From an uncultured Chloroflexota bacterium (GTDB taxonomy: Bacteria > Chloroflexota > UBA11872 > UBA12225), in assembly GCA_902805635.1 (NCBI GenBank), contig CADCTC010000204.1, positions 10,903 through 74,902 of the forward strand: a DNA stretch of 64,000 nucleotides, in the 5' to 3' direction. The notes under the pieces were generated by a model. It was not told the DNA's origin. It saw nothing but the letters and a program-made list of their open reading frames with translations, and did no database searches. Positions 22,709-45,746 of this stretch are shown in pieces. The translations under genes were made by a program, and so were the position numbers. Every line of letters starts with the position of its first letter. Positions within the stretch are counted from its first letter, which is position 1.

Positions 22709-24801
22709 CTGGCTGTGGCTTGGGCTGGCAGAGCCGGTCGCGCGGGTTGAAGAACGCGGAACTGGCGCGTCACCAGGAAGGTGACCTGGCAAAGCGCCCA
22801 GGCGAGGATGGCGGCCGCGAACGGGGCAGCCATGTAGGCGTAGCGGACCTGGAAGAGACGGCTCTGCGGCACACCGGCAATGAACCCGATGGGGGGCAGC
22901 ACGCCCACGAGACACAGCGCGAGCGGCAGCCAGTGTGTGCGCCAGAGGCGCCGCCGAGCGAGAAGACCGGCGCAGCCGGCGAAGAAAACCAGCGGCACGA
23001 GCCACGGAGACTCCAGGCCGAGGTAGCCGCCCAGCCCCGCGGTGAACCGCGAGGAAGCACCGGCCACGGCATAGTGGGGAGAGATAAACATCTCCTGGGC
23101 GTAGATGCGGAAGATCCCCCGGGTGGTGTACCAGGCCAGCTGAGGCGGCGAGTGGTAGCTGAACAGGTACTCGGCCGCGGTGACGCGGCGATCTTCCTCG
23201 AATCCCGGCGTGCCAAGCCGGTCGGCGAACTCCTCCTTCCAGTTGGCGGTGGCGATGATCGTGGAGGCAGGAAACGCCTCGCCACGCGAGCGGGCGTACC
23301 CCGCGAAGACCGGTACCAGCACGAGCGCGAGCAGCGCGGCTGTGGCGCCAAGACGAACGAGGCTCCAGCGCTGTGCGACCGCGGCCCAGAGCAGCACGAA
23401 ACCGGCGAACGGCAGCGCGTCTAGGCGGGTGAGGCCCGCAGCGGCGGCGCTCAACGGCGCAAGCCATGACAGCCGCAGCCGGCCGGTGGAAGGCAGCCAG
23501 AGCAGCGCGACCGCGATGGCGAGGAAGACCCCGGTTGCCTCCTCGCGCAGGCCAACTACGCCGTTGCGGACCCACGTGGAGTCGGCGCTCATGAGGTAGG
23601 CGGTAACGGCGCCCGCCGGGCGGCCGAGTAGCGCGGCGACGGCAACCCCACTCACCACCACCCACGCAAGGGAGGAGGCGAGCGAAAAGAAGACGGCGTG
23701 CAGCTCACCGGGACCGAGAAGCGACAGCCAGGCCTGGAGCAGGAAGACGTAGAGGGGCTCGCGGAACCACGTGCTGCCGCCGAAGAACAGCTCCAATCGC
23801 CCGGCGCCTTCGGCTGACATTTTGCGGCCAAGCGAGAGCGCCTCGTCGTAGTAGCTCTGCGCGTCGAGGCTGAGCGGCACCGAGTACTCCGGGCTGACCA
23901 CGAGGTGCTGCCAGCGCCACTGGAACCCGGCGAGAACAGCACCGATGAGCAGCGCGCAGAAGGCTGCACTGTCGAGCGTATGGCGCTGCCCTCGGGCGCC
24001 AGCGCGATGCATGCGGAGCGTGACGAACGCGGCCAGTGTCAGCCACCAGGCGACCATGCCGGCCGGCTCAGCGGACGAGCGTGCGAAGGTGAGAACCAGA
24101 TACCCCACGAATCCCAGTAGCGGAGATATCAAGAACGGGAGAACGTCGTGTGAGACACGTCGGCGTGGAACAGGTGCGTGCGAGGCGCCGTTCGCCAGAG
24201 GATCGGCAGCCGTCCTGGTGGCGGTTATGAAAATTTGCAAACAAGCCGTCGCGAGAGCAGCTGTTGCCGTTACGTAGAGCACGGCAACGATGGCCGGATC
24301 GACTTCCGTCGCGCCGATCCCGGGCGGAGGGGGGCCTAGCAGCAGGTGCGCCAGCGTGGCGAGGCATGGGTCCAACGTATTGCCAAGGACTTGCCAGGCC
24401 ACGTCGCCACCGCCTCGAAGTGTGAGTACGGTCGCGGCAGCAGGCGGAAGGACGGCCAGGGAAACGGGCAGCAGCGCCGCGGCAGCGCGGCGTGACCACA
24501 GCGGCAACCCACCCTTCGCATCGGCAGCGAGCGGCGCGAGGAGAAGCGCAGCCAGCGCGAGTCGGCCGAGCACACCGTTGCCAAGGAACGCTGCACCGGC
24601 GGATGTAGGAGCCGCTCTCAGAGCAAGTAGCGCCACCGGATCTGCCAGCCACAGCGCAGCCGCGCCGCCGGCGACGGCGAGAACGACCTGCCGGTGACGC
24701 GCCAGTAGGTGCCACAGGGTGGCAGTCCAGCCGGGACGGGTGGCGGAAAGCAGCCACACGGCTGCGCCGAGCGCCAGCGACACAGCGGCGGATGGGCTCA
24801 C
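22705..24801 (-). CDS. Polytopic membrane protein, GT-C-like (ArnT/PMT-type) glycosyltransferase module
   Basis: It has more than 10 hydrophobic segments. The loop motif LDAQSYYDEALSL...FREPLYVFLLQAW is present. The C-terminal signature NWKEEFADRLGTPGF...YLFSYH...RGIFRIY is shared with both halves of the 1846-aa protein. The GTG start at 24801 overlaps the upstream stop (GTGA). Confidence 0.65.
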   Translation of the reverse strand: MSPSAAVSLALGAAVWLLSATRPGWTATLWHLLARHRQVVLAVAGGAAALWLADPVALLALRAAPTSAGAAFLGNGVLGRLALAALLLAPLAADAKGGLPLWSRRAAAALLPVSLAVLPPAAATVLTLRGGGDVAWQVLGNTLDPCLATLAHLLLGPPPPGIGATEVDPAIVAVLYVTATAALATACLQIFITATRTAADPLANGASHAPVPRRRVSHDVLPFLISPLLGFVGYLVLTFARSSAEPAGMVAWWLTLAAFVTLRMHRAGARGQRHTLDSAAFCALLIGAVLAGFQWRWQHLVVSPEYSVPLSLDAQSYYDEALSLGRKMSAEGAGRLELFFGGSTWFREPLYVFLLQAWLSLLGPGELHAVFFSLASSLAWVVVSGVAVAALLGRPAGAVTAYLMSADSTWVRNGVVGLREEATGVFLAIAVALLWLPSTGRLRLSWLAPLSAAAAGLTRLDALPFAGFVLLWAAVAQRWSLVRLGATAALLALVLVPVFAGYARSRGEAFPASTIIATANWKEEFADRLGTPGFEEDRRVTAAEYLFSYHSPPQLAWYTTRGIFRIYAQEMFISPHYAVAGASSRFTAGLGGYLGLESPWLVPLVFFAGCAGLLARRRLWRTHWLPLALCLVGVLPPIGFIAGVPQSRLFQVRYAYMAAPFAAAILAWALCQVTFLVTRQFRVLQPARPALPAQATAR

Positions 24802-26522
24802 GCGGCGGGGAGCGCATCCCGCGGGATGGGCGCGACGGGTGCCCCCAGAGCCGGCGGGTTGCCGCGCAGGCGCTCCAGCCACGGCTGAAGCTTGAGGCGC
24901 CGGAACCCGACAAAGCTCATCTTGAAGAGCAGCGGCGCGTGCTCGACGACACGCACTTTTGAGTAGCCTGAGGTCCGGGCGCGGTAGCGGACTGGGACCT
25001 CGACGATGCGGAGACCGAGACGGGCAGCGCCGAAGAGCAGATCGAAGTCGCCGAAGGGATCGAAGTCCCCGAAGTAGCCGCGGTTGGCCGCCAGGCGGTC
25101 GTAGTCGCGCTTGCGCATGACCTTGGTGCCGCACAGCGTGTCCTTGATCGTCTGGCCCAGCAGCCAGGTAAAGAGCACACTGAAAAACTTGTTGCCGAGC
25201 AGGCGGTGGAACATCATGGCCTCGTCTTCCATGGGGTAGACGAGGCGGGTGCCGTTGACGAAGCCGGCCTTGCGGGTGGCGATCGGGGTGAGGAACTTGG
25301 GCAGCTCTTCGGGCGGCACCGTGAGGTCCGAGTCCAGGATGAATAGGACATCCCCGCCGGCGGCCGCAAATCCCTTGCGAACCGCGTCGCCTTTCCCCAG
25401 GCGCAGCATGCGGACCTCGCCGTCAGCCGGCACATGGGCTGTGGGCGACGGCCGGCCGATGGAAAGGGCTGACTGGCCAGAAGGCAGCACGCCGGACCCT
25501 GGGGCGCTCTCGGCCGGTCGCCAGCCGGTGGTGGCTGCGAAGGGGGCGATCTCCGGGGGTGCGGGCCCATTGGGGTCCGGGACCTGGTCGATAAGCTTGA
25601 TGTCGCGCCGGCCGCGGTAGCGCTCGATCTGCTCGAGGATGCGCTCGCGCGTGCGGTCGGTCGAGGCGCCGTCCACGAAGATGACCTCGGTGTGCGTGCC
25701 CAGATCGGGCATCCGGTCGAGGCAGGCGGCGATGTTGTCTTCCTCGTTGCGGCACGGGACGATCACCGAGCAGCTGAGCGCCTCTGCGCGCGGCGGCTGC
25801 TGCGGCTGCACGACCCAATGGGTAGTGAGCCCCATCAGGCGCAGGAACGGCAGGCGAATCAGCCACTGGTTGAACAGGGGACCAAGGACGGGGACGGGCC
25901 GCGGGAGCAACAGACGCGTGTCGCGCGCCAGCGTCGCGTAGTCGGTGAGCAAGAGCACGTTGTCAACGTCGGCCATGCCGAGCCAGTTCTGGGCGCCCTG
26001 GGGCATTTTCAGCCCCAGTCGTTCGGCGGCGGTGAGCGCTACCTGCCAGGCAAAGTTCCAGTAGGTAATGACAATCCTGGTCTGCGGGGTGCAGACTCGA
26101 TGGAGCACCTCCAGCACCAGCTGGATGTCTTCCAGGTGGCCCAGCAAGTCCGAGCAGATCACGTAATCGAAGGTGCCGCGCACCGGTGGCTCGTGAGCGT
26201 CGGCGCGCAGGAACTGGAGCTGCGGGTGGCGTAGGCGCGCCTGGCGCAGCATGCCTTCGCTCACGTCCAGGCCGACCCCAAACGAGGGCTGGACTGCCGC
26301 CAGCAGGTCGCCGACGCCGCAACCGAGCTCGAGGACGCGCGCGCCGGGAGGGATGGTCTGGCGGGCCAGGCGCTCGATCTCGGCGTAATAGAAGTGGTTG
26401 CGCGCGCGCCAGGCAGGGCGGCCGGTAGCGTATCGGTCAAACCACGCGGCGGTGCGCTGCGCGACGCGCACGCGGTGGCCGCGCCGGAAGTCGGTGTCAG
26501 CCGGTGGAGGAACTGAGGTCAC
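24798..26522 (-). CDS. Fusion protein: N-terminal class I SAM methyltransferase plus C-terminal GT2 (polyprenyl-phosphate sugar synthase-like) glycosyltransferase
   Basis: The methyltransferase motif I is ARVLELGCGVGDLL. The GT2 part shows CSVIVPCRNEEDNI...VIFVDGASTDRT and FILDSDLTV. The start is GTG at 26522. Confidence 0.8.
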   Translation of the reverse strand: MTSVPPPADTDFRRGHRVRVAQRTAAWFDRYATGRPAWRARNHFYYAEIERLARQTIPPGARVLELGCGVGDLLAAVQPSFGVGLDVSEGMLRQARLRHPQLQFLRADAHEPPVRGTFDYVICSDLLGHLEDIQLVLEVLHRVCTPQTRIVITYWNFAWQVALTAAERLGLKMPQGAQNWLGMADVDNVLLLTDYATLARDTRLLLPRPVPVLGPLFNQWLIRLPFLRLMGLTTHWVVQPQQPPRAEALSCSVIVPCRNEEDNIAACLDRMPDLGTHTEVIFVDGASTDRTRERILEQIERYRGRRDIKLIDQVPDPNGPAPPEIAPFAATTGWRPAESAPGSGVLPSGQSALSIGRPSPTAHVPADGEVRMLRLGKGDAVRKGFAAAGGDVLFILDSDLTVPPEELPKFLTPIATRKAGFVNGTRLVYPMEDEAMMFHRLLGNKFFSVLFTWLLGQTIKDTLCGTKVMRKRDYDRLAANRGYFGDFDPFGDFDLLFGAARLGLRIVEVPVRYRARTSGYSKVRVVEHAPLLFKMSFVGFRRLKLQPWLERLRGNPPALGAPVAPIPRDALPAA

Positions 26523-27109
26523 GAGTGGTGGGATCTCCCGAAGAGCGGAACCGCCGCAGGCCGGGCGTGAGCCGTTCTAGGACTGCAACGGCTACCAGCA
26601 GCCCGAGGTAGAAGACGGCGAACCAGATAATCCACTCGTTGATGAGCGCGTCCAACCAGGCGCCGGCACCGGGTGAGAACCACGGCTGCCAGGAGGCCGT
26701 GACGGCGGTGAGCGCCGAGGCCACGGCAGCGGCGAGCGCGCCGGGGCTCCAGCCGGTGGCGGCGCGGGACGTGTCGCCTGGATTGGCCGCCGGTGGTGTG
26801 CCACTGGGCGAGGCGCCAGTCGATTCGGCCGGGAGCCGGGCGGATGTATCGTACACGGAACCACAGTTGATACCACAGACCGGCGCACATGGCGCCCAAG
26901 CAACGGACGGCGACGCTCGGCGGGCCGGTAGGTTCAGCCCCGAGCTGAGCGCCGCGGCGCTGGCCACCCTGGTTGCGCTGGCGGGGCTTCAGTTTCCCTC
27001 TCCCGGCGACTGGATGGCGACGTGGGGCGGAGTGCTGGAGCTCGGCGCGTCGCTCTGGATTGTCGGCTTTGTGGGAACGCTGCCCGCGCTCTGGGTGGTT
27101 GAAGGCGGG

Positions 27110-28462
27110 ATGGCGGGATGGATGTCCCGCCGGCGCGGCGTTGACGTGCCCGCCAACCCCGTCTACCAAACCCCCGGCCCCTTCCCTAAAGGGAAGGGGA
27201 GTGAGACAGCGCCGGCAGCGGTGACGCGCGCTCGACGTGGAGCACGGGCAACGGCTGCCTGGGCGGCGCTGCTCCTGGCGATCTGTGTGGTGGAGCTCCT
27301 GCTGCACGAGGGAGAGCGCAACCCGTTCGTAGCAACCAGCCGGCCGGAGAGCGGAGTAGTGGACTGGACGGTCGCGGATGGTTACGCAACGCTGCTAGAC
27401 GGGCACATTGCCCAGGGGGACGGACTATTCCTGTTGCCAATGCTGGGCCTATTCCTAGGCGACCGGCCGCCGGAGCCGAGTGAGTTCGACCGGCGAGCGG
27501 GACACGTGTTCCTGGTCTCGCTGCTGGCACGGCCAGTCGGCGCATACTGGGCGTTTGCAGTGGTGAACCTGCTGAGTTGGTGGGCGGCAAGCCTGAGCGT
27601 CTGGTGGCTGGCGCGCCGGCGGTGGCCGGGTTCGCCGGTGCCCTGGATCGCCGGCCTGCTGACGGCAACCGGCCAGGGGTTCATTTTCATGTCCACGGCG
27701 CCGCAAGCGCACGCGGCGGCGTTCGCGGCGTTCGCGCTGGTACTCGCGCTGGCGGATAGGCTCCGGCTGTGGCGGCGCGAGGCCGGTCTAAGCGCCTGGC
27801 TGCGGCTGGGCTGGGCCGCGGGGGCGGCAGGGCTCATTTACCTGGTGTACCTGCCGTGCTTGTTGTTCTTCTGGCTCTATGGCGTGGCACGCGGACGGCT
27901 GGCGGGACTGGTGCTGGCGACGGCAGCCACGCTGGGTATCGTGGTGACGTGGGAGCGGCTCGCGGCTGCGCTGCTGGGCCTGAGCTTCTCAGGAGGGAAC
28001 AACGACCTGGCGGGGGAGGCGCTGGGCGGCTGGGTCAACCTGGCGCGGGCGAGCGCGGCACACGTTGTGGGGCAGCTGCACCATAGCTCGGTCCGAGGCC
28101 TGATGGTGGGAGCGTTCTACTACCCCTGGTGGGTGCTGGCGGCGTTTGGGCTTGCCGTGAGCACACGAGACGCCCGACGTTGGGGGCTGGCGGTCATGCT
28201 GGCGACGGCGCTGCCGGCGGTGGCATTCACGACGCGGTTCAACTTGCCTCGGGTGGCGTACTTCATGTACCCGGCGCTATACCCGCTGGCGGCCGCCGGG
28301 ATCGTGTGGCTGGCGGGACAGGTCTGCAGACGCTCCCCTGCCGGCCGTTGGGTCGTGGTGGTGGCGCTCACCGGCGGGCTAGTGGCGCTGACCAACCTGG
28401 ACGTAGTGGGGCTGCAGCACCTGGCACTGTGGTTCCACCACTCCAAGGGGCGTGAATGGTGA
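27110..28462 (+). CDS. Family A polytopic membrane protein (paralogue 1), unassigned, possibly GT-C or polymerase-like
   Basis: It shares ERNPF, F(Y/P)YPWW(V/A)LAA(F/I)G and R(V/A)A(Y/F)(F/Y)MYPA(L/V)Y with 30881..32203. The start is uncertain. Candidates are 26639, 27014, 27110, 27122 and GTG 27224; the last fits the paralogue's length best. Confidence 0.6.
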   Translation: MAGWMSRRRGVDVPANPVYQTPGPFPKGKGSETAPAAVTRARRGARATAAWAALLLAICVVELLLHEGERNPFVATSRPESGVVDWTVADGYATLLDGHIAQGDGLFLLPMLGLFLGDRPPEPSEFDRRAGHVFLVSLLARPVGAYWAFAVVNLLSWWAASLSVWWLARRRWPGSPVPWIAGLLTATGQGFIFMSTAPQAHAAAFAAFALVLALADRLRLWRREAGLSAWLRLGWAAGAAGLIYLVYLPCLLFFWLYGVARGRLAGLVLATAATLGIVVTWERLAAALLGLSFSGGNNDLAGEALGGWVNLARASAAHVVGQLHHSSVRGLMVGAFYYPWWVLAAFGLAVSTRDARRWGLAVMLATALPAVAFTTRFNLPRVAYFMYPALYPLAAAGIVWLAGQVCRRSPAGRWVVVVALTGGLVALTNLDVVGLQHLALWFHHSKGREW

Positions 28463-29223
28463 ACGTTTCGCATCAACTGAGCCGGACGCCCCGGTGGGTG
28501 CCGTGGGCTGCATTGGGTGGGGCGGGAGCGTTGAGCGCGATTGGGGCACCGCTTCCCACGGTCATCGCGCGCGTGTTCTTCGTGACGGTGGCAGGTGGGG
28601 CTCTGGTGATGGCGCTGGAGGCGGTGGGGCGCAGGGCGCAACTGCTGGCGGCAGGGGTGCTCCTGGCACTCGTGGTGGTCCAGATGACGGTACGGCGCCC
28701 GCTGGAAACGCCACCGCCGTCGCAATGGACGGTCGAGCTGCCCACGCCCGCCGAGCGGGTTCGGCACACCATTGCGTTGCCACTAGGCAAGGCGCAGTGG
28801 GGGCAGTGGTGGAGCGGCGCGTCCGGGGCGGCGGTGTACGTGTGCGCGCGCGGACCGCTGGAAGAGGCGGACGGGTTGGATCTGGTGCTCAATGACGAGG
28901 TCCTGGGCCGCATTACGCAGACCCACGCGTTTGGCCCACGGCCGCTGCCGACAAGCGTCGGCTTCTACCGCGTGCCGGTGACGCGCGCCGTGCTGGAGCG
29001 GTCGCCATCCGCGGTGTTCGAGCTGCGCCGCGCAGCGGCAGCCACAGCGCGGCCGGTGGAGATCTGCGGCACGTTCACCTACCGGCCGACCGCGGGCCTG
29101 GAGAGCAGCGCATTCTTCGACGGAGCGCGGTGGACGAGTCCCGGCCCGACACAGCGCGGTCGCTACATCGTCGAGCTGCGGATCGAGCGCCTGCCGGGCA
29201 ACGCGCTGGTGGCGCTTTATTGA
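28456..29223 (+). CDS. Family B protein (paralogue 1): N-terminal TM helices plus a beta-rich extracytoplasmic domain of about 170 aa, unknown function
   Basis: It shares FYRVPVTRAVLER / VFELRR / ARWTS / RYIVELR with 30027..30890. The ATG overlaps the upstream stop (ATGGTGA). Confidence 0.65.
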   Translation: MVNVSHQLSRTPRWVPWAALGGAGALSAIGAPLPTVIARVFFVTVAGGALVMALEAVGRRAQLLAAGVLLALVVVQMTVRRPLETPPPSQWTVELPTPAERVRHTIALPLGKAQWGQWWSGASGAAVYVCARGPLEEADGLDLVLNDEVLGRITQTHAFGPRPLPTSVGFYRVPVTRAVLERSPSAVFELRRAAAATARPVEICGTFTYRPTAGLESSAFFDGARWTSPGPTQRGRYIVELRIERLPGNALVALY

Positions 29224-29287: not shown

Positions 29288-30067
29288 TCAGGCGGCAGTC
29301 GGGCGGGAGCCGGCAATGAGCAGCGACCCCGCCAGGTGGGAGATGAGCGGGAGCCGCTCGAGACACGACTCGACGCGCTGGGCGATCAGTACGACCGACG
29401 CTGGGATGATGGGGTGCAAAAAGTCGAACGGGGTCACTTGGTGCACATCGAGGCCGGCGTCCACCAGGAGGCGGCGCGTCTGCGGCGCAAAGAAGGCGGT
29501 TTCATGGGGAGTGTCACCCAACCAGCGTTTAATCGGAGGGACGTTCTTCTGCACGGCAACCTGGGGGTTGAGCATGTTCGGCTCGGTGAAGGCAAAGCGG
29601 CCACCGGGCTTGAGCACGCGGCGCAGCTCGCTCAGTGCGGGGCCAATGCGGAGGTGGTGCAGGACAGCATTGCCGAGAACGGCGTCGAATGCGCCATCGG
29701 GGAAGGGTAGGCGCTCGGCGTCGCCAAGCACGAACCGGGCGCCACCGCCAATGCCGCGCTCGACCGCGACGTGCACAAGGTCGGCCACCAAGTCGAGCGC
29801 CACGAGCGCGGCGCCGCGCTCGGCGAGCCGGGCGGTGTACTCGCCGGTGCCACAGCCGAGCTCGAGGACGCGCGCGCCGGGCTGCACGCGCGCCGCGTCC
29901 AGCAAGAGAGCGCTGCGCCGGCGCACGCGCTCTTGTCCCGCCAGGCCATGCTGCCCCCACACGGCCGCCGCGCGGCCGGCAATTGCGCGTCCGTGCGAGA
30001 GCTCGGCGAGCTTGCGCAGATCGGAATCAGTACCAGATGCCGGCATGCGGGAGTCCATTAGCGTCAT
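29288..30067 (-). CDS. Class I SAM-dependent methyltransferase
   Basis: Motif I is ARVLELGCGTGEY, and AFDAVLGNAVLHH and LKPGGRFAF follow. The start is trimmed to ATG 30067; ATG 30058 and 30046 are also possible. It overlaps the 3' end of the upstream gene. Confidence 0.8.
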   Translation of the reverse strand: MTLMDSRMPASGTDSDLRKLAELSHGRAIAGRAAAVWGQHGLAGQERVRRRSALLLDAARVQPGARVLELGCGTGEYTARLAERGAALVALDLVADLVHVAVERGIGGGARFVLGDAERLPFPDGAFDAVLGNAVLHHLRIGPALSELRRVLKPGGRFAFTEPNMLNPQVAVQKNVPPIKRWLGDTPHETAFFAPQTRRLLVDAGLDVHQVTPFDFLHPIIPASVVLIAQRVESCLERLPLISHLAGSLLIAGSRPTAA

Positions 30068-30890
30068 AGAAGCGAAGCTCGATGTAATAGCGACTCGACG
30101 CCGGCCGTCCACTGACGAGCGGGACCGGCACGTCGGCAAGGTTGTCGGATGTCCAACGACCGGCGGACCACCGTAAGCTGGCGCCGCGATCCTGACGATC
30201 GGGGTCGTCCTGGCCACCGCAGAACCGTGCGGGTGGCCCCGCTACCCCCTCGCGCCGGAGCTCGACCACCAGCGGCGCCTGGCGCTCCACCACATCACGC
30301 GTGACGGGCAGGTTGTACCAGCCGGCGGCGCCGGGAGGTCCCTTGCGCTCGAGCGCCGCCAGTGGGACCGGCTCGGCGCCGTTCAGCGCGATGACCACGC
30401 CCGCCTCTGGAGAGATCACGTCGGGGCTACACACGGCGATGGCGGCGCGCTGTGCGCTGCGCCAGGCACGCTCCCACTCGCGGTCCCCTGCGGCCGACAG
30501 CGGTAGCTCGCGCCGGATGGCGTCGCCGGGCGCGGAGAGGGAGACTGTCCAGCCCACGACAAGCGGCAGGGGCAGCGTGCCCACGCCGAGTTGCTGCGCA
30601 CCGGTAGCCGCGACGACGAGCACCGCGGCTGCAATTGCGGTTCGAGCTCCGGCGAGGCGCGTGATCAGCGCAAGGCCGGTAGGCCACAACAAGGCAGCGA
30701 AGAACAGCGTGGCCCAGAAACGTGGCCATGGCTTGATCCCGGGTTCCACCAGCAGCGTCCCGCCAAGGGCACACAGCGCGACAGCGGCGGTGGCGCCAAG
30801 GCCGATAACCAGGCCACTCGTGGTGGAAGTGCGGAAGGGATTCTTCGCTTCACCCATAGTGACCGGCACCCGCGGTCGTCTTAACGCCAT
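30027..30890 (-). CDS. Family B protein (paralogue 2)
   Basis: WYNLPVTRDVVER / VVELRR / GRWTS / RYYIELR are present. GGGAG lies 4 nt upstream of ATG 30890. Confidence 0.65.
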   Translation of the reverse strand: MALRRPRVPVTMGEAKNPFRTSTTSGLVIGLGATAAVALCALGGTLLVEPGIKPWPRFWATLFFAALLWPTGLALITRLAGARTAIAAAVLVVAATGAQQLGVGTLPLPLVVGWTVSLSAPGDAIRRELPLSAAGDREWERAWRSAQRAAIAVCSPDVISPEAGVVIALNGAEPVPLAALERKGPPGAAGWYNLPVTRDVVERQAPLVVELRREGVAGPPARFCGGQDDPDRQDRGASLRWSAGRWTSDNLADVPVPLVSGRPASSRYYIELRFYDANGLPHAGIWY

Positions 30891-32203
30891 GACGCTCCCA
30901 TCGACTCGTGGAAGCGAGTAATCAACAAGGTATCGCCGAGCAGGTCGAGGTTGCTGGTGAAGACGACGCTAGCGAGGGCCGCGACGGTGACGGCGAGGGA
31001 GACAGGGTGTATGCGCGCTGGCCGGCCAACTCCTTCAGGGTCGGGGGAGGTGGCAAGCCTCAGGCAGCGAACAACCAAGTCGCCGAGGGTAAGAGCGCCA
31101 CGAGCTGCCATCACGTAGACGGCGGGGTACATGTAGAACGCGGCGCGCGGGAGGGGGATGAGGGAGAGGATGACGATAGCGGGGAGCAGGCCGGCCATGA
31201 AGAAGGCAAGCGCCCAGCTGCGATCCCGCGGCGGACTGGCGAGGAAGCCAATGGCGGCGAGCGCCCACCAGGGGTAAGGAAAGGCACTGGCGAGCGTGCC
31301 GCGGATCGCGGCGGCACCCGCCACCGGGCCGCCGCGCAGGTACGTCAGCACGTCGGAGGGCGGGCGGCGAAGGTTGGTGAGCCATGCGGCGATTGAGCTA
31401 CCGACGGCGGAGCTGTTGTCGGTGGTGAAGCCCAGACCGACCACACTTTGGCCGTAGACCTCCCACGTGGCTGAGATGGCAAGTGTGACCACGGACGCGG
31501 CGAGCAGGTAGCGCCAGGGCACGCGGCGCAGCCCGTAGACCCACCAGAACAGCAGCAGCGGGATATGGGCAAAGTAGATGGTGGAGGCGACGCCGGCAGC
31601 CCAGCCGAGCAGCAGCCAGCCGCGCACCCCTGCCCTCTCGTCGAAGGCCCCCAGCCACTCGGAGAGCGCCAGGACGAGGAAGAACGTGGCGTACGCGGCC
31701 AGGTAGGACATCGGCACGCCGGCCATGAAGATGAAGCCATTCCCCGCGGCGACCAGGAACGAGGTGGCGCACGCCAGGCGGACGTCTCCCCAGCGGCGGC
31801 GCACGAACCAGAAGCACGCCGCCGCTGCGGCCCACCAGAAGAGCCAGTTGAGCAGCAGGAATCCGGTGTAGGGGCCGGCCCACGGCACGACTAGGGAGGA
31901 GAGATACGCATACGCGGCGCGGCGGTCGAGGATGCCGCTGCCTTCGGGACCACGACTGCCCAGGAACATGGCGGTCAGCGTGAGAATGCCGTTGGCGTCG
32001 TGCAGCACGGGCACAGTACCGACCCAGGTGACGTAGCCGTCTCCCGGCAGGAGCTCGCTGACGCTGGACGCCGGCCGGCTGCTGACCAGGAAGGGGTTGC
32101 GGGCGCCGCTGTGGGTGACCAGCTCCAGCGCGCAGACCGCGGCAAGGACCAGCAACCAGAGCGCGTGGAATCGCCGGCCGGCCGGAAGAGTGGAGCGGAT
32201 CAC
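30881..32203 (-). CDS. Family A polytopic membrane protein (paralogue 2)
   Basis: It aligns along its length with 27110..28462 (ARNPF, FPYPWWALAAIGF, RAAFYMYPAVY). The GTG start at 32203 overlaps the upstream stop (GTGA). The longer track ORF overlaps the preceding gene. Confidence 0.7.
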   Translation of the reverse strand: MIRSTLPAGRRFHALWLLVLAAVCALELVTHSGARNPFLVSSRPASSVSELLPGDGYVTWVGTVPVLHDANGILTLTAMFLGSRGPEGSGILDRRAAYAYLSSLVVPWAGPYTGFLLLNWLFWWAAAAACFWFVRRRWGDVRLACATSFLVAAGNGFIFMAGVPMSYLAAYATFFLVLALSEWLGAFDERAGVRGWLLLGWAAGVASTIYFAHIPLLLFWWVYGLRRVPWRYLLAASVVTLAISATWEVYGQSVVGLGFTTDNSSAVGSSIAAWLTNLRRPPSDVLTYLRGGPVAGAAAIRGTLASAFPYPWWALAAIGFLASPPRDRSWALAFFMAGLLPAIVILSLIPLPRAAFYMYPAVYVMAARGALTLGDLVVRCLRLATSPDPEGVGRPARIHPVSLAVTVAALASVVFTSNLDLLGDTLLITRFHESMGASWR

Positions 32204-33147
32204 GTGCCCTGGTTCAGCGCGAGCGAGGCGGTGTAGCTGGCAGTTTCGAGGCGGAGCCGGCCGCCGTGCTGCGGATCCGTCTTCGGCTCGCCGAGGCGCA
32301 CCTGGGTGAGCTCCTCTCGTTGCGGCGCTCGCCAGATCACCTGCCCATCGATTGCCAGCACGATCTCGCGAGTGTCGCGCGTGACCTGCCAATCGTGAGC
32401 CCGGCCATCGCTCCCGGCGGGATGGCGCAGCTCAAAGCCGCGGGCGGCGTTGCGCTCATCCGGATAGGTGACGTGAACGCCATAGTCGACCAGCTGGATC
32501 AGCAGGCGACGCGCCTCGAACACGACGTAGAAGGGGTGAGTTCGCGTGGCGGCGGCCCGCCACGCGACCCGTTCAACGCGCGGAAGCTCCAGCAGGCCGA
32601 CCGGAAGCAGCCAGTTGCGGTGCGGACTCGGCCACTCTCCCAGGCGCGCGACAGCATACGCGGCACCGCCGGGCGGACTGTCCAACACCAGTGCGCGACC
32701 CTCCACGCGAGCTGTACCGCCGCTGCGCGTCTCCAATTCCCAGTCCCGGCGCAATGACGCATCGTCGGCGAAGGTGGCATCGAGCGCAATCACGGGACCA
32801 CCGCGTGTGATTGGGTTCGCTATGCGGGCGTAGTGGACCGCGTCGCTCACCAGCAGGGTGACCGCCGCACATACGAGTGGCAGGCGGCTGCCGGCACCCG
32901 CCTGCGCGCGGATAAGACCCCACACGGCCACTGAGGCGGCACCGCCCAACAGGCTGAGTCGCGCAGCGCGCCCCCATGGCCCGTCGGCAACGGGATCCCA
33001 GGTCAGCAGGCGTAGGGCCACTGCAGCGACAGCCAGCGCCAGCAGCAAGGCAATGCGACGCCGCTCGTCCTGGTCAGCAAGGATGCGCGCTAACGAGGGT
33101 CGGATGCCAGGCGTCGTCGGAGCGGCAAGACTGGCTGGAGGGTGCAT
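32200..33147 (-). CDS. Family C protein (paralogue 1): 3-TM anchor plus a beta-sandwich (ConA/LamG-like?) domain of about 200 aa, unknown function
   Basis: It aligns end to end with 33168..34151 and 43781..44683 (LTWD.VADGP, H.....ANPITRG, LLIQ.V.YG.H.TYPDERN, DW...RD.R.I...IDG...W, VRLGE.K.D..HGG). Confidence 0.7.
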   Translation of the reverse strand: MHPPASLAAPTTPGIRPSLARILADQDERRRIALLLALAVAAVALRLLTWDPVADGPWGRAARLSLLGGAASVAVWGLIRAQAGAGSRLPLVCAAVTLLVSDAVHYARIANPITRGGPVIALDATFADDASLRRDWELETRSGGTARVEGRALVLDSPPGGAAYAVARLGEWPSPHRNWLLPVGLLELPRVERVAWRAAATRTHPFYVVFEARRLLIQLVDYGVHVTYPDERNAARGFELRHPAGSDGRAHDWQVTRDTREIVLAIDGQVIWRAPQREELTQVRLGEPKTDPQHGGRLRLETASYTASLALNQGT

Positions 33148-33167
33148 GGCAGGCGGACGCCCGGCGC

Positions 33168-34151
33168 CTAGCGTTCGAGCGTGACGCGGTAAGAGACAGA
33201 CTCTACGCGCATCGAGCCGCCGTGCTCCCGGTCGTTCTTGGTTTCGCCCAGCCGCACCTGGTTGAGCTCGCCGCGTTGCGGGGCAGCCCAGACCTGGCGC
33301 CCGTCAATACTGACGGCAATCTGACGGCTGTCGCGCACGATGCGCCAGTCGTGCGCCTGACCATCGGCGCCAACGGGGTGCTGGACCTCGTGCCCGCGCA
33401 GCTGGTTGCGCTCATCCGGGTAAGTGATGTGGATGCCATAGCCGACCGCCTGGATCAGCAGGGTTGGTACATCGACCACGACGTAGTAGGGCTGGGTGCG
33501 CTGCACGGTCGCGCGCCAGGCGAGCTGCTCCACACGCGGGCGCTCTGCGAGACCTACGGGCAGCCACCACTGCGTCGCGATGTCCGGCACCGGCTGCAGT
33601 CTAGCGCGCAAGTAGGCGACGGCGCTGGGCGGGCTGGTCAATACCGCGGCGGGTCCGTCGAACCGTACCTGGCCACCGCCACTCATCTCCATCTCCCAGC
33701 TCCTGCGCGCCGACTCGTCGGCAAACGAGCCAGCCACCTCGCGGATGGGCGCGCCGCGCGTGATCGGGTTAGCAAGCCGCACATAGTGGATCGCGTCCCC
33801 GGCGAGAAGCACCACCAGTGCAGACGCGAGTGGTACCCAGCTGCCACGAGCCGTCTGCAGCCTGACGAGGAACCAGATCACGACCACCGTGGCGCCGGCA
33901 AACAGGGCCACCTTCACAAACCGGCCTCGCGGGCCATCGGCGACCAGGTCCCACGTTAGTACGCGCAGCGCGAGGCTCACGACGATCACAGCGGCCAGGA
34001 TCGCCAGGAAGCGCCAGTCGCTGGGGGAGACGTACTCGTCCAGGCGTTCTCGCCACGAGCGGCGCCGCTCGTGAACCGGTATAGCGCCCGCGATACCGGC
34101 GGCATCTCCCTCTGCAGGGAGCGCTGCGCCTTCCGCCATCTGTCCGGCCAT
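33168..34151 (-). CDS. Family C protein (paralogue 2)
   Basis: It has the same architecture and motifs. ATG 34151 lies 1 nt after the TAA of the giant gene, with GGAGG upstream. Confidence 0.7.
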   Translation of the reverse strand: MAGQMAEGAALPAEGDAAGIAGAIPVHERRRSWRERLDEYVSPSDWRFLAILAAVIVVSLALRVLTWDLVADGPRGRFVKVALFAGATVVVIWFLVRLQTARGSWVPLASALVVLLAGDAIHYVRLANPITRGAPIREVAGSFADESARRSWEMEMSGGGQVRFDGPAAVLTSPPSAVAYLRARLQPVPDIATQWWLPVGLAERPRVEQLAWRATVQRTQPYYVVVDVPTLLIQAVGYGIHITYPDERNQLRGHEVQHPVGADGQAHDWRIVRDSRQIAVSIDGRQVWAAPQRGELNQVRLGETKNDREHGGSMRVESVSYRVTLER

Positions 34152-34152: not shown

Positions 34153-37100
34153 TTAGAAGGTACCTCCAGAGACGTCTGCGGCGATAGCCGGCGCACCCCC
34201 GGCGCCGCTCAGTGAGTGACCACGCCGCACGCGCGACGCCAGCCACAGCGGCACCGCGCATACCGCATACGCCGCGGCGAGCACGGCGTAGGGCAGCGCA
34301 TGGTGAGCGTAGCGCGGCGCGAAGACCCACGGGTTGGGCACGCCGGCCATGAACGCGTAGAACGGCGCCAGGCTGGCCACCACCACGAACGGGATCAGCC
34401 AGCGGCGCGTGGCCAGCAGCAGCGCCGTGCCGGCAATGAAGAGCCACAATGCCACCGGCCGGCCGCCGATGACGAGCTGGTCGCGGAACAAGATGTCCGG
34501 AAAGATGCGAATGAAGCCGCGCACGCTGTATTCCACGAAGGTGGTGATGGAGTGATACCCAAAGAAGTAGGTCATCGGAGAGATGGAGGGGCCGGCTGCC
34601 CAATCGGCCGCGTACGCTTCCTGACTGGGAAAGCCGGGAGTGCCCATGCGTTCCGGGAACTCGAGATTCCGGTTCACCGTGGCGCCATAGGTGCCCGGAT
34701 AGAACGGGTCGAGCCGGGTGAAGGCATACCCCGCGTACATGGGGCCAGCGAGCACGCCCGTGACCAGCACCGCGGCGACCCAGGCACGCCAGTCCCAGCG
34801 TAAGGCGAGCGCGCCTAAGGTCATCACCAATCCCGCCAGCACCAGCATGTCCGCGCGCACCAGGATCAGACCACCGGCGCACGTCCCGACCAGCGCGATA
34901 CGCCACGGGCGCGGTGAATCGCCCGGCCGGGCATCCACGAAGATGGCAGAGACGAGGCCGAGGAAGAAGATCGCCACCAGCTCTTCGCGCAGCCCGGCCA
35001 CCCCGTTGGCGATCTGCGCCGGGTTCAGCGCGTAGAGCAGGCCACCGGCGAGTCCGGCCAGTGGGTGCAGCACGCGCCAGCCCAACCAGCAGGTGAGCGC
35101 CGCGAGCGCGACCGAGAGGCCGAGCGACGCGAGCCGGGTGTGAAAAGCGGACACGCCCAACACGTTGTAGACCAGCCGCAGCGCGAACGGCCAACCCGGC
35201 TCGCGCCCCATGTGGTCGGCGGCGTAGAACGCCGCGGCGGCGCTGACATGGCCATCGAAACCAGACTCGTAGGCGGCTTCCAGGAGCGGCGAGGGCCGCG
35301 CCAGCCGGTAGCGCGACATCTTCTCCGGCACGCCCGCCGCGATCGCCTGGTAGTCACGCGCATCGGGCACCAGAAACTGGTAACGCACCTGCATCAACTG
35401 CTGCCAGCGCGCATCGGTCGCGACCGCGGCCACCACCAGGCAGGCAACAAGGAGCCAGGCACGTCCGTACCGCCGTGCCTGCCCCATACCGCCAGCAGCG
35501 CCTTCGCCCCGGGACGCGCTGACGCTCCCCGCATCGCCTCGACGCAGCGCGGCCCATGCTGCGACCGACGCGGCGACGGTGATGATCAGCCCGGCGGCGA
35601 GACGGGCGGCGCGCAGCGCGTAATCCGCGTCTGGCGAGTTGTGCAGGTCCAGGAGAAGGGACGTGTCCAGTACGGCGCCCATCCGCGCGGTAGGAGCGGC
35701 CGGAGCAGCCAGCGCTGCCAGGCGCGCGACTCCGGCGACCAGGACACCCGCCACCAACCCGCTCGGTCCGGCGAACGACGCTCGCCCCGCACCGCGCGCC
35801 AGCGCGTGCACTATCGCCGCCGCGACCGCAGCGTACGCGACGATGGGAAATGTGGCGTGCGGCACGGTGCCCTCGTCCGTCACCACGCTCACCAGGAACG
35901 AGGGCAGGACGGTCACCTCGCCCGTGGTGGTGTTGGAGGCCGAAAAGCGCAGGCGGTAGACAGTTTCAGTCCCTAACAGCGGCGTCAGGTCGAGCATCTG
36001 TCCGCCCGCGATTTCGCCGAGTGAGGCGTCTCTTAGCACCGGCACAAACGGCGCGCCCTCACCGGCTGCGACTTCGAGCGCGTTGGGGAACGATTCGTCG
36101 GAGAGCGTCTCTCCGGACTCGGCGAGCCTGCGGTTGTAGAACTCCGCCTTGAGCAGGACCACCGAGCGCGGCGGCCGGTCCAGGCGAGTGACGATGCTGC
36201 CGGAGGCGCCGGGAGCCAGCGTCAGGCCGCGGAGCCCAAGACCAAACCCACTGCGCTGCTCCTGGCGAGCGTCTTCGGTCAGAGAGTAATTGAAAAAAGA
36301 ACGGTACAAGTCATGCGCCTGGGCGTCGGGCGCCGCGGCCGTGCCCCATCCGCGCATCGCATCCGGAAACACTGCGGCCGCCACAGCCGCGGCGGCAAGT
36401 GCTGTGCCGGCCAAGGAGGCGCCTGATGGAAGCCACCTCGCGAGTAACGGCGCGGCGCCTCGCCACCACCGGGCAAGCTGCTGCGGCAGACTCTGGCCGC
36501 GCCCGTCAATTCGCAGCACGAGCGCGCCGATCGCAATGCACGCCAACGCCATCGGCGTACCGGGGAAGAGCACCAATTGCATGCCGAATAGCGCGGCGGC
36601 GCGGGACGCGGCAGCCGGCGTTACAACGCCTGCCACCATGGCCAGTGAGGCGTAGCCGAGCCCCACTGCCAAGAGTGCCGGAAGAGAAGGACCGACGCCA
36701 CGGAGCAGGGAACGGTAGGCACGGTTGGCGGCACCGGGACTCACCGCGTTGGCGGCCAGCGCTAGGAGCAGCACACCAGCGGTCAGAGACACCAGCCAGG
36801 CGCGCCAGAAGCCGGCGAGCCAGAGGGGCGGCGCCGCCAGCCGTGTCGCCCCGGCGGGCTCGATGGCCAGCGCGACCGCCAGCGCCCCCGCGAAGATTAC
36901 ACCGATGGGAATGGACCGGCGCGGACCGCCGAGCCGCGACAAGAACCGGAGGGGCAGCGCCGCAGCAAGTCGGGGCCGTGCGGCAGCTACACGGTGGAGC
37001 ACCAGGAGCGGTAGCGCGCCTAAGCCATACCCGGCGATCAGTTCTGTGTACGGCAGGACGTGATGGGCGTAGCGCGGCACGAACATCGGCCCCGGGGCAC

Positions 37101-39693
37101 CCGCGAGGAACGAATAGAACGGCACCAGCCCGACGACCACTAGCGACGGCGCCAGCCACCTTCGCCTCACCAGCAGCAGTGCGGCGCCGGCCAAGAACGC
37201 GGCGAGACGCACCGGCTGGCCGCGATACAGGAACTCGTTGAAGATGCGCAGGAACCCGCGGGCAGAGAACTGGATGAACTCGGCGGGAGTGTGATAGCCG
37301 AAGAAGTACGTCATGGGCGAGGTGTACGGCGGCGCGGCCCAGTTGACCGCGTACTGCTCCGGCGTGGGGAACCCTGGAGTGCCGAGGCGGTGCTGGAACT
37401 CCAAATTGCGGTTCACAGTTGCCCCATATGTCCCTGGGAAGAAGGGGTCCAGGCGCGTGAGCGCGTAGCCGCCGTACATTGGCCCAGCCAGCGCCGCGAC
37501 GACGCCGGTAGCGGCGAGCCACTCGCGCCAGTCCCAGCGCAGCGCGATCGCGCCCAACGTCACGATCAGCCCGGCCAGCACGACCATGTCGGCGCGCACC
37601 AACACCAATGCGCCGCCGCAGACGCCGACCAGCGCCAGCCGCCAGGGACGGACCACCGCGCCACGGCGCACGCCCACGAACACGCCGGCCACCAGGGCCA
37701 CAAACAGAAGTGACACAAGCTCTTCGCGCAGGCCGGCGACACTGTTGGTGACCTGCGCCGGATGGAGCGCGTAGAGCAGCCCTCCAATGAGCCCGGCCAG
37801 TGGGTGCAGCACGCGCCAGCCTAACCAGCAGGTCAGAGCTGCCAGGACCACGGCAAAGCCGAGCGACGTGAGCCGGGTGTGAAAGGCGGACACACCCAAC
37901 ACGTTGTAGACCAGCCGCAGCGCAAGCGGCCATCCGGGCTCCCTGCCGTTGTTCTCTGAGGCATAGAAAGTGGCGGCGGCGCTGACGCGGCCGTCGAACC
38001 CGGACGCGTAGAGCGTGTCCAGGACCTCGGACGGGCGCTCCAGCCGGTAGCGCGCCGTTTTCTCGGGCAGTTCGGCCGCAATCGCCTGGTAACCGGCGGC
38101 GTCCGGCGCCAGCAGATCCTGGTGTACCGCCATCAGCTGCTGCCATCGAGCATCGAGCGCCACCGCGGCGACGAGCAGGCACGCGATGACGAGGGCGACT
38201 CTTGCCGCGCGGCGTCCTGGCGCTGCTGTGCCCGAGGCAAGCGCGACCAGCGCACCAACGGTCCTCTCGGCTGGCCGGGAGGACCGTGCGGCGCCGAAGA
38301 GCGACGCCAACAAAGTGAGGGCGCTCGCCGCCGCCGCAGCGTAGAAGACAATCGGAAACGTGGCGTCGGGGAGTGCCTCGCGATCGAGGCCGGCGCTCAC
38401 GGAAAACGACGTGAGAGCGGTGACGGCGGAGCCGGTGATATTGCGGGCCGAGAACCGCAGGCGATAGACCCGCTCGCCCGCCAGCAGCGGCGTCAGGTCG
38501 AACGGGGGCGTGCCAACGGCCTCGCCCACCGTCTGATTGGTCAGCAGCGTTCGGAACGGTTGGCCCTCACCGGCCGCAATCTCCAATCGGTTCTCGAACC
38601 GCACGCTCTGCACAGCGGCACCCGTAGCCGGTGCCCCGGCGACTATGCGGTCGTAGAAGTTGGACCGCAGCACCACGGCGGTGTCGGGGTCGCGCTCCAG
38701 CCGCACGACAAGCGTGCCCTCACGTCCAGGCTCCAGCGTCAGCCCGTCATACCCCGGCTGAAAACCACTCAGCTGCTCTATGCGGGTGTCGGCGGGCAGG
38801 GCGCCGTACACAAACGAGGTGTAGTAGCTGTGCCGCTGTGCACCCGGCGGATCGGCCCGCGCCCAGCCGCGCATCGCGCCCGGAAAGACGACTGTGGCCA
38901 CGACACCGGCAGCCACCGCCGCGGCGACTACCGGCGCAGCCGCTGTCAGCAGCCGCGTCGCACCTGGACCGAAACCGCGACATCCCCTGGCCACCCAATC
39001 CACTATGCGCTGTTGCCTGGCATCCAGAAACACAACTCCGGCTGCCAGGGCGGCGCATGCCAGGACAAAAGGCGTTCCGGGGAATAGGAGGGCGAACAGG
39101 CCACGTACGGCTGCCTCGTGCGCCAGCTGCGCGGGAGTCAGCACGCCGGCGACCAGCAGCAGGGCGGCGTACGCCAGCGTGGCTGCGAGCGCCAGGGGAA
39201 GCGCACGGACGGCGCGAACGCGGACGCGTTGGAGCGCTCCCCACAGGCCACCGGGCGCGGCGGTATTGGCCATCAGCGCCACCAGCACGCCAAGCGCGGC
39301 TGCCGGCACGAGCCACACGTGCCACCACCCGCTCAGCCAGACCGGCAGCGCTGCGGCGCGGATAGGCCAGCCAGGCTCGACCACGAGCAGCGCCGCCAGC
39401 GCCGTCATAAGCACGACGCCGGCAGCGTGCCGGACCCATCGGCCGTTGTTGTCCGTTGGTGTGCCGGGCACCGGCGGTATGGCGGGTGTCGCACGGGCGA
39501 ATGGCGCCGCCGGGGCGGGAGTCGCGTTCTCAGTCACGCGCCGCGCTCCGGTCACGGGCACACCCGACCCGCGCGGCGACCGAGAAACCAAGGGTGACTT
39601 GCTATGCTCCCGCGCAGCTTGAAAATGGCCACTGCGGTTGCGGCTCGTGCAGCCGCGGGGCCATCGAGCCGGTCCTCGTGACGCAGTGGACAA
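34153..39693 (-). CDS. Giant (up to 1846 aa) polytopic membrane protein made of two tandem units of about 900 aa, each ending in a GT-C-like module
   Basis: It is a single uninterrupted frame. Unit 1 (about aa 85-905) and unit 2 (about aa 925-1825) align throughout, for example ARWQQLM at aa 515 and 1428, and GREPGWP(L/F)ALRLVYNVLGVSAFHTRL at aa 583 and 1496. The true start is probably downstream of 39693 (in-frame GTGs at about 39561, 39555, 39537 and 39471), because 39693 leaves only 15 nt to the divergent gene. Confidence 0.8.
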   Translation of the reverse strand: MSTASRGPARWPRGCTSRNRSGHFQAAREHSKSPLVSRSPRGSGVPVTGARRVTENATPAPAAPFARATPAIPPVPGTPTDNNGRWVRHAAGVVLMTALAALLVVEPGWPIRAAALPVWLSGWWHVWLVPAAALGVLVALMANTAAPGGLWGALQRVRVRAVRALPLALAATLAYAALLLVAGVLTPAQLAHEAAVRGLFALLFPGTPFVLACAALAAGVVFLDARQQRIVDWVARGCRGFGPGATRLLTAAAPVVAAAVAAGVVATVVFPGAMRGWARADPPGAQRHSYYTSFVYGALPADTRIEQLSGFQPGYDGLTLEPGREGTLVVRLERDPDTAVVLRSNFYDRIVAGAPATGAAVQSVRFENRLEIAAGEGQPFRTLLTNQTVGEAVGTPPFDLTPLLAGERVYRLRFSARNITGSAVTALTSFSVSAGLDREALPDATFPIVFYAAAAASALTLLASLFGAARSSRPAERTVGALVALASGTAAPGRRAARVALVIACLLVAAVALDARWQQLMAVHQDLLAPDAAGYQAIAAELPEKTARYRLERPSEVLDTLYASGFDGRVSAAATFYASENNGREPGWPLALRLVYNVLGVSAFHTRLTSLGFAVVLAALTCWLGWRVLHPLAGLIGGLLYALHPAQVTNSVAGLREELVSLLFVALVAGVFVGVRRGAVVRPWRLALVGVCGGALVLVRADMVVLAGLIVTLGAIALRWDWREWLAATGVVAALAGPMYGGYALTRLDPFFPGTYGATVNRNLEFQHRLGTPGFPTPEQYAVNWAAPPYTSPMTYFFGYHTPAEFIQFSARGFLRIFNEFLYRGQPVRLAAFLAGAALLLVRRRWLAPSLVVVGLVPFYSFLAGAPGPMFVPRYAHHVLPYTELIAGYGLGALPLLVLHRVAAARPRLAAALPLRFLSRLGGPRRSIPIGVIFAGALAVALAIEPAGATRLAAPPLWLAGFWRAWLVSLTAGVLLLALAANAVSPGAANRAYRSLLRGVGPSLPALLAVGLGYASLAMVAGVVTPAAASRAAALFGMQLVLFPGTPMALACIAIGALVLRIDGRGQSLPQQLARWWRGAAPLLARWLPSGASLAGTALAAAAVAAAVFPDAMRGWGTAAAPDAQAHDLYRSFFNYSLTEDARQEQRSGFGLGLRGLTLAPGASGSIVTRLDRPPRSVVLLKAEFYNRRLAESGETLSDESFPNALEVAAGEGAPFVPVLRDASLGEIAGGQMLDLTPLLGTETVYRLRFSASNTTTGEVTVLPSFLVSVVTDEGTVPHATFPIVAYAAVAAAIVHALARGAGRASFAGPSGLVAGVLVAGVARLAALAAPAAPTARMGAVLDTSLLLDLHNSPDADYALRAARLAAGLIITVAASVAAWAALRRGDAGSVSASRGEGAAGGMGQARRYGRAWLLVACLVVAAVATDARWQQLMQVRYQFLVPDARDYQAIAAGVPEKMSRYRLARPSPLLEAAYESGFDGHVSAAAAFYAADHMGREPGWPFALRLVYNVLGVSAFHTRLASLGLSVALAALTCWLGWRVLHPLAGLAGGLLYALNPAQIANGVAGLREELVAIFFLGLVSAIFVDARPGDSPRPWRIALVGTCAGGLILVRADMLVLAGLVMTLGALALRWDWRAWVAAVLVTGVLAGPMYAGYAFTRLDPFYPGTYGATVNRNLEFPERMGTPGFPSQEAYAADWAAGPSISPMTYFFGYHSITTFVEYSVRGFIRIFPDILFRDQLVIGGRPVALWLFIAGTALLLATRRWLIPFVVVASLAPFYAFMAGVPNPWVFAPRYAHHALPYAVLAAAYAVCAVPLWLASRVRRGHSLSGAGGAPAIAADVSGGTF
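34219..36921 (-). repeat. Intragenic repeat unit 2 of the giant gene (approximate bounds; carries an extra insert of about 74 aa)
   Basis: The offset between matching motifs is 839 aa near the unit starts and 913 aa from ARWQQLM onward. Confidence 0.7.
36979..39441 (-). repeat. Intragenic repeat unit 1 of the giant gene (approximate bounds)
   Basis: Hand alignment of the two protein halves. Bounds are good to within a few tens of nt. Confidence 0.7.
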
Positions 39694-40800: not shown

Positions 40801-40814
40801 GGGGGGCACCGCCG

Positions 40815-45708: not shown

Positions 45709-45746
45709 GCATACCCGGCGTGAAGGCGACTACCCACAAGACGGAA

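Follow-up and report, generated by a model that had tools for sequence, protein, structure and literature searches.

A Predicted Lectin-Fold, Membrane-Anchored Protein Family Encoded Beside GT-C-Like Genes in a Chloroflexota Polysaccharide Cluster

The window considered here, that is, the whole stretch of DNA that was analysed, is 64 kb long (~68% G+C) and comes from an uncultured Chloroflexota bacterium. It contains three related genes, C1, C2, and C3, which make up what is here called family C. C1 (33168..34151, minus strand) encodes a protein of 327 aa with an arginine-rich N-terminus, three transmembrane (TM) helices and, in the predicted structure, a concanavalin A (ConA)-like beta-sandwich. 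C2 (32200..33147, minus strand, 315 aa) is a paralogue of C1 at 51-54% identity, and C3 (43781..44683, plus strand, 300 aa) is a diverged third paralogue at 33-36% identity. The C1 protein is 100% identical to NCBI entry AVDCRST_MAG77-4301 of an uncultured Chloroflexi bacterium, where it is annotated as "hypothetical protein". The reading put forward here, with confidence somewhat above even, is that the family C proteins are membrane-anchored, lectin-fold glycan-binding subunits that act in trans with extracytoplasmic enzymes of the GT-C glycosyltransferase superfamily.

An earlier note on this DNA, made from the sequence alone, had described three paralogues that align end to end. The open reading frames (ORFs) are present, and in end-to-end alignment C1 is 51% identical to C2 and 36% identical to C3. 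The corresponding BLASTP E-values, 8e-100 and 7e-38, are far beyond chance.

The structure of C1 was predicted with AlphaFold2 from an alignment of 55 family members. The model has a mean predicted local distance difference test (pLDDT) score of 92.3 and a predicted template modelling score (pTM) of 0.82. Its helices span residues 43-65, 75-99, and 106-127 (the region 43-127 corresponds to window 33771-34025, minus strand), and hydropathy also gives three helices. Residues 137-325 (window 33177-33743, minus strand) are all-beta and form a sandwich of ~190 residues with 15 strands. Both the three N-terminal helices and the alternating strands that follow had been anticipated from the sequence, and the model contains both. 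The N-terminal tail is rich in Arg (HERRRSWRER); by the positive-inside rule, it would lie in the cytoplasm and the beta domain outside.

Comparing the C1 model with other structures by Foldseek yields 674 matches in the PDB and 366 in BFVD at E<=1e-3. The best PDB matches are the N-terminal, lectin-like half of botulinum neurotoxin (BoNT) Hc, the lectin domain of V. cholerae sialidase, a phage carbohydrate-esterase domain, and the carbohydrate recognition domain of Emp47p. The BFVD matches are phage ConA-like lectin/glucanase and LamG proteins. The Foldseek probability is 1.0, the top matches have E-values of 1e-8 to 1e-9 (best 9e-9 in the PDB and 1e-9 in BFVD), and TM-scores normalised to the small targets reach 0.55-0.59. 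The ConA-like lectin/glucanase fold is a two-sheet antiparallel sandwich of ~150-250 residues, and the C1 model has such a sandwich and can be superposed on members of the fold. A ConA/LamG-type sandwich had been guessed in the earlier note, and structure prediction with Foldseek bears this out at the level of the model.

At the level of sequence, no Pfam or NCBIfam model matches C1-C3 at threshold. Pfam Laminin_G_2 (PF02210) reaches 12.9 and 12.7 bits with C1 and C2 (E 0.16-0.18), below its gathering threshold of 22.9 bits, and does not match C3. A match of the TM region to UhpB is spurious. Sequence-profile search of the PDB gives only weak matches, to GH16 (E 0.56-1.5 over 27-30 residues) and to neurexin LamG, with E 0.6-5 for the two together. 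Because these matches are weak and short, and because E-x-D-x-x-E, the general form of the GH16 catalytic motif (E-[ILV]-D-[IVAF]-[VILMF]-E, on a strand of the concave sheet), occurs in none of C1, C2, and C3, membership of family C in GH16 is rejected. A link between family C and glycans is suggested by the predicted lectin-type fold and by the genomic context described below.

Family C is rare. An exhaustive profile search over 1.84 billion representative proteins (E<=1e-3) finds only 155 clusters at 50% identity, and most members are 280-345 aa long and matched end to end. Named members come nearly all from metagenome-assembled genomes (MAGs) of Chloroflexota from soil and freshwater; one, P0064, is labelled as an Actinobacteria MAG. 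Among GTDB species genomes, 12 of the 12 loci with family C belong to Chloroflexota.

Conservation is uneven along the protein. In an alignment of 153 members, the conserved positions on the membrane side are D72 and G73, in the outer loop between TM1 and TM2, and H122 and R125, at the outer end of TM3; all four are among the 12 best-conserved positions, and the shared motifs reported earlier are present as well. In the sandwich, P198, Q234, G239, W288, G302, D307, H310, and G312 are conserved, and the domain carries a motif of its own, G-E/D-x3-D-x2-H-G-G. Information content is 2.55 bits per position in the outer loop (residues 66-74), 2.16 in TM3, and 1.88 in the sandwich. Since conservation peaks in the outer loop and TM3, the anchor is probably no passive tether.

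Directly upstream of C1 lies a giant gene (34153..39693, minus strand) with a maximal ORF of 1846 aa. It is an in-frame, head-to-tail fusion of two units of ~920 aa, here called B unit 1 (~36934-39693, minus strand) and B unit 2 (34156-36933, minus strand), and the identity between the two is 66% over the C-terminal halves and 46% over the N-terminal halves. All relatives found encode single B units of 870-996 aa. The B-B junction is crossed at 100% identity by an ENA gene call, P0213 (1501 aa). The start of the giant gene is uncertain because its first 120 codons contain no ATG.

Each B unit consists of an N-terminal TM bundle, an extracytoplasmic beta-sandwich resembling a carbohydrate-binding module (CBM), and a C-terminal module with the GT-C fold. 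The C-terminal half aligns with an "ArnT-like" protein that carries PMT/PMT_2 domains (hhalign probability 96.9%, E 1.9e-10). An AlphaFold2 model of B unit 2 has a pLDDT of 75.5 and a pTM of 0.78; its alignment is shallow, since the second and third word-searches for B homologues returned just 7-8 proteins. The best PDB matches of this model in Foldseek are all GT-C enzymes, namely STT3, ArnT, AglB, PglB, AftB, AftA, and ALG9, and the top ones (the first five) have E-values of 2e-4 to 9e-3. The sequence P523-D524-A525-x2-Y528 is invariant in B, and D524 lies in the first outer loop. B thus has both marks of the GT-C superfamily, a polytopic GT-C fold and an acidic residue in the first outer loop. 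No Pfam model matches B at threshold, so that B is a new GT-C lineage and not a member of a named family. The unit ends straight after its last TM helix, which leaves it without a soluble domain at the C-terminus. The internal sandwich of B unit 2 (residues 209-351) matches CBM6, CBM61, Eph ligand-binding domains, and reelin repeats in Foldseek; the GT-C partner therefore already has one CBM-like domain besides the C subunit. A distant third B-type, GT-C-like paralogue, g809, is found at 22705..25134 on the minus strand; its identity with either unit of the giant protein is 28-30% over the C-terminal half of that unit.

The junctions between these genes are tight. A single nucleotide separates the TAA of the giant gene (34155-34153) from the ATG of C1 (34151-34149), and a Shine-Dalgarno-like GGAGG (34163..34167, minus strand) precedes that ATG by 11 nt, still within the giant gene near its end. 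A gap of 20 nt follows between the TAG of C1 (33170-33168) and the ATG of C2 (33147). Finally, the TGA of C2 (32202-32200) overlaps the GTG start of a family A gene (32203-32201) as GTGA. The 4-nt overlap between a C and an A gene is also seen among the called genes of two related loci, L001 (11005/11002) and L005 (8893/8890), which makes three loci with the window. The single-nucleotide spacing and the GTGA overlap had both been pointed out before and can be read directly in the sequence. They are consistent with the operon and co-translation that had been proposed for these genes, and conserved synteny adds support.

This synteny was compared by tblastn over 17 loci (L001-L017). A single B unit directly precedes C, in the same orientation, in L001-L007 and L009-L016; L008 has a B fragment close by, on the other strand. 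The close spacing in the window, taken with this conserved order, suggests that B and C are produced together. Pairs of a family A gene (famA/g607) and a family D gene (g255-type) occur near C in most of the 17 loci.

In L005, the closest relative, a single B unit precedes two C genes in tandem, and then comes famA. The first of these C copies shares 79% identity with C1, and the second shares 75% with C2. Because each thus has its own ~75-79% identical orthologue, a recent tandem duplication giving rise to C1 and C2 is ruled out; the C1/C2 duplication predates the B-B fusion, and both copies have been kept. The same locus speaks against a strict 1:1 match between neighbouring B units and tandem C copies, which is rejected because one B unit there precedes two C genes. 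When B-type modules and C genes are counted over whole clusters, the numbers are 3:3 in the window, 2:2 in L005, and 2:2 in L001; these are the countable loci, and because the contigs are partial, the match in copy number is no more than suggestive.

A different arrangement is found in L017 (7686-14551 of the Chloroflexota chromosome OY759972.1), where a triplet of genes has been duplicated in tandem. Each triplet is headed by a C-like gene, followed by genes for a 3-TM protein (276/303 aa) and a polytopic protein (487/482 aa); the copies are 73%, 74%, and 60% identical. The polytopic proteins show weak similarity to g639, a membrane protein of the window, and no homologue of B, A, or D is nearby.

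In the window, the C genes are ORFs separate from those of the GT-C enzymes. The C module can also be found in covalent attachment to other proteins. In five proteins (P0132, P0156, P0164, P0185, and P0199), the entire module, three TM helices and sandwich, forms the C-terminus of a polytopic protein of ~800-1000 aa. The fusion partners match the end of Pfam YfhO (PF09586) with E-values of 3e-6 to 2e-4 and 20.4-26.4 bits, below the gathering threshold of 28.5 bits, and they have an invariant Asp right after TM1 (YGNDTGxWD). YfhO is a predicted GT-C enzyme with genetic support (PMC5836110). Searches with the N-terminal parts of the partners, by hhalign and against the PDB, return nothing, so the label "YfhO-like" is based on the C-terminal Pfam match and on architecture. 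These fusions may represent the in-cis form of the C module.

The fusion loci are glycan clusters as well. In L019, for instance, there are genes for GT2, methyltransferases, DegT, and a TMEM260_N-like protein. Genes of the YfhO-like type stand side by side in pairs, encoding 1177 and 1194 aa in L018 (617-7960) and 1303 and 856 aa in L019 (7482-14196). L019 also has a 504-aa gene with a weak match to TMEM260_N, a GT-C O-mannosyltransferase family, and a 657-aa gene with a faint match to YfhO.

Pfam scans of window genes identify the surroundings of C1-C3 as a polysaccharide cluster. An ABC ATPase with a Wzt_C carbohydrate-binding domain (Wzt; 18874-20235, minus strand) and an ABC-2 permease (Wzm; 20232-21065, minus strand) are the predicted exporter of the cluster's polymer. 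Together with Wzm/Wzt (18874-21065, minus strand), the cluster has five methyltransferase genes (21062-23665, 24798-26522, 29288-30217, 39709-40800, and 40659-41474), one fused to GT2 and two with Trm112p-like zinc ribbons. Other genes encode GT2 and GT1 proteins, and one encodes a flippase-like LPG_synthase_TM protein. The large membrane-protein genes scattered through the cluster match no Pfam or NCBIfam model. The Wzt_C domain and the methyltransferases recall ABC-transporter-dependent polymers, in which a methyl cap at the chain end is read by Wzt. The longest ORF of one Trm112p-methyltransferase gene (21062-23665, minus strand, 867 aa) runs ~960 nt into the end of g809. Because its Pfam domains begin only at residue ~334, its true start is probably at ~22705, directly past the g809 stop.

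The family A gene coupled to C2 (30881..32203, minus strand) encodes a polytopic membrane protein of 440 aa, for which Pfam PMT is found only at E 0.63. Its paralogue g607 (26639..28462, plus strand) is 38% identical over ~420 aa. No relation of family A to the ArnT-like protein or to B was found with hhalign. After family A, and overlapping it by 10 nt, comes D' (30027..30890, minus strand, 287 aa), a small protein with a TM anchor, whose C-terminal region is beta-rich; it is a paralogue of g255 (28456..29223, plus strand), the D-family protein paired with g607. Family D as a whole is unannotated. Its members are ~250-290 aa long and TM-anchored; their C-terminal region is rich in beta structure, and two Cys are invariant. 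In most related loci, family D is paired with family A, which gives a second module of a polytopic protein and a small anchored ectodomain, parallel to B-C. Comparison of family C by hhalign with family D (g255-type) and with the internal beta-sandwich of B shows no relation, so that C and D as distant homologues are unsupported.

C3 has a different neighbourhood. The polytopic protein g639 (42038..43957, minus strand) is encoded divergently to it; its true start is probably at ~43450, since the alignment with its homologue in L005 does not begin before residue 172. Immediately downstream of C3 is an LPG_synthase_TM (flippase-like) gene (44845-45708, plus strand), and then a GT2 gene (45603-46742, plus strand) whose longest ORF overlaps that of LPG_synthase_TM by ~100 nt. 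Judged from their domains, these two are candidates for a flippase and a lipid-linked sugar donor synthase. With g639, the C3 region (43781-46742, plus strand) looks like a three-component set for extracytoplasmic glycosylation, made of a lipid-sugar synthase, a flippase, and a membrane transferase.

These elements can be assembled into a model of how family C might work. Cytoplasmic GT1 and GT2 enzymes, together with the methyltransferases, would build a polyprenol-linked, methylated polysaccharide, which the Wzm/Wzt transporter would export. Outside the cell membrane, enzymes of the GT-C fold (both units of the giant protein, g809, and perhaps other polytopic proteins) would extend or decorate the polysaccharide with sugars from lipid-linked donors. 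The C protein, with its Arg-rich N-terminus in the cytoplasm, three helices in the membrane, and its ConA-like sandwich on the outer face, would dock on its GT-C partner through the 3-TM bundle and through the outer-leaflet loop, which is highly conserved. Its jelly-roll domain would then catch and position the acceptor glycan. In this way, C may take in trans the place of the C-terminal carbohydrate-binding modules that are covalently part of EmbC, AftD, and GT136 ORF12.

Confidence in this glycan-binding subunit stays only somewhat above even because glycan binding, a complex of B with C, and the direction of the pathway are what we infer from fold and context, and because the conservation peak at the membrane interface hints at more than the holding of a glycan. 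Several observations weigh against it. The best-conserved residues, D72, G73, H122, and R125, lie at the membrane interface and off the sandwich, a position that would suit lipid-phosphate binding or catalysis no less than the passive holding of a glycan. In L005, two C genes stand behind a single B unit, so that the pairing of neighbours is not plainly 1:1, and in L017 the C-like genes stand without any neighbour of the B type. The fusion partners match YfhO only at profile positions ~764-833 of 835, and profile comparison finds no relation between them and B. Finally, the CBM of GT136 ORF12 is dispensable under the conditions tested (PMC11127046).

Alternatively, C may itself be an enzyme, for instance a membrane-anchored, ConA-like hydrolase of glucanase type, a transglycosylase, or a ligase joining polymer to wall, with its site between membrane and sandwich. 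The polar residues D72, H122, R125, Q234, D307, and H310 are nearly invariant across the family, and an outer-leaflet loop and TM3 end that are the most conserved parts would be expected of a site acting on a lipid-linked substrate. The GH16 matches mentioned above point the same way, and no ligase of the Wzy_C/WaaL or LCP type was found among the Pfam-scanned genes of the cluster; these are only part of the window genes, so that absence of a ligase is not established. However, the GH16 motif is missing from all three copies, the top structural matches are binding domains and not catalytic ones, and links to GT-C enzymes, by fusion or by coupling, are typical of a CBM. A separate enzyme is accordingly considered rather unlikely. 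The same interface residues could instead bind the polyprenyl-(pyro)phosphate head group or stabilise the GT-C enzyme, making C a lipid-carrier or substrate-handling partner or an assembly chaperone whose sandwich is structural. The peak of conservation in the loop and TM3 relative to the sandwich, an invariant Arg/His/Asp cluster predicted at the outer-leaflet boundary, and the three kinds of polytopic partner (B, YfhO-like, and g639-like) agree with such a role. It is held to be a shade more doubtful, since a 190-residue lectin fold with a motif of its own is unlikely to be merely structural and since no known lipid-phosphate-binding motif was identified in family C.

Several C paralogues per cluster could also set distinct modal lengths, with C as a ruler or co-polymerase that determines chain length or termination for a polymerising extracytoplasmic GT-C, a functional analogue of Wzz. 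In support of this, EmbC CBM mutants are cited as giving shorter arabinan in a passage of PMC11127046. Yet family C has no structural resemblance to Wzz or other polysaccharide co-polymerase proteins, and the cluster already has the hallmarks of length control of the ABC-transporter type (methyltransferases and Wzt_C), so that this role is improbable. A bolder proposal, also unlikely, takes C as an obligatory catalytic or substrate-loading subunit, in which D72-G73, H122, and R125 form, with the sandwich motif, a site for polyprenyl-phosphate-linked glycan. Such a site might be part of a composite active site with the GT-C partner, or might belong to a new membrane-bound polysaccharide ligase or transglycosylase of the Chloroflexota envelope.

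GT-C enzymes build or decorate envelope polymers such as arabinan, O-antigen side chains, teichoic acid sugars, and N-glycans, and their acceptor-binding modules are normally in the same polypeptide as the enzyme. If family C is the glycan-binding subunit favoured here, it would be a modular, exchangeable subunit for acceptor recognition, separate beside one GT-C enzyme and fused to another type. The family also offers a first functional way into a block of some five families of unannotated membrane proteins (A, B, C, D, and g639). These seem to form a Chloroflexota-specific machinery for extracytoplasmic polysaccharides, and the cell-envelope architecture of this phylum is still a matter of debate. 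In practical terms the gain is modest, consisting of the annotation of a dark protein family and the prediction of its partners. The ConA-like fold is already known, as is the concept of a GT-C enzyme that bears a CBM. What is new is a separately encoded, 3-TM-anchored module, ConA-like in its predicted fold, with a conserved interface motif, present in several copies, near-exclusive to Chloroflexota, and surrounded by unannotated families.

Among the closest known systems are the GT-C arabinofuranosyltransferases EmbC and AftD, whose CBMs, like the modelled domain of C, are jelly-roll, lectin-like sandwiches on the extracytoplasmic side. The C-terminal jelly-roll CBM of EmbC (subdomain II in M. 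tuberculosis) binds the acceptor, and in EmbC and AftD the CBM comes after the last TM helices of the enzyme, where its presumed task is to hold the acceptor polysaccharide (PMC3044687). This covalent layout recurs in the five YfhO-like-C fusions. Unlike these CBMs, C in the window and in most relatives is encoded by a separate gene with its own 3-TM bundle. It has no detectable sequence similarity to them, and its interface motif (D72-G73, H122, and R125) is not known from them.

A second comparison is offered by the ConA-like superfamily itself, which includes LamG, the legume and L-type lectins, BoNT Hc-N, CBM40, and GH16. Its members share the two-sheet jelly-roll fold of the C model in Foldseek, but the sandwich of C is joined to a conserved 3-TM bundle, and no description of such an architecture was found. 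The C-fusion partners resemble the YfhO/GtlB-type GT-C enzymes of teichoic acid glycosylation in Gram-positive bacteria in their sub-threshold match to the C-terminal end of Pfam YfhO and in the Asp after TM1, a feature of GT-C enzymes (PMC5836110). However, characterised YfhO proteins have no C module, and B of the window belongs to a different, ArnT/PMT_2-like GT-C lineage.

Finally, the GT136 enzyme ORF12 of Citrobacter youngae O1 works on a polymer that is exported by an ABC-transporter pathway and modified outside by a GT-C enzyme, and its CBM binds the unmodified acceptor O-polysaccharide (PMC11127046). The window has parts comparable to this three-component system, namely a GT2, a flippase-like protein, and GT-C-like proteins. 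The CBM of ORF12 is described as immunoglobulin-like and is covalently attached and dispensable in vivo (PMC11127046), whereas family C is ConA-like in its predicted structure, separately encoded, and present in multiple copies.

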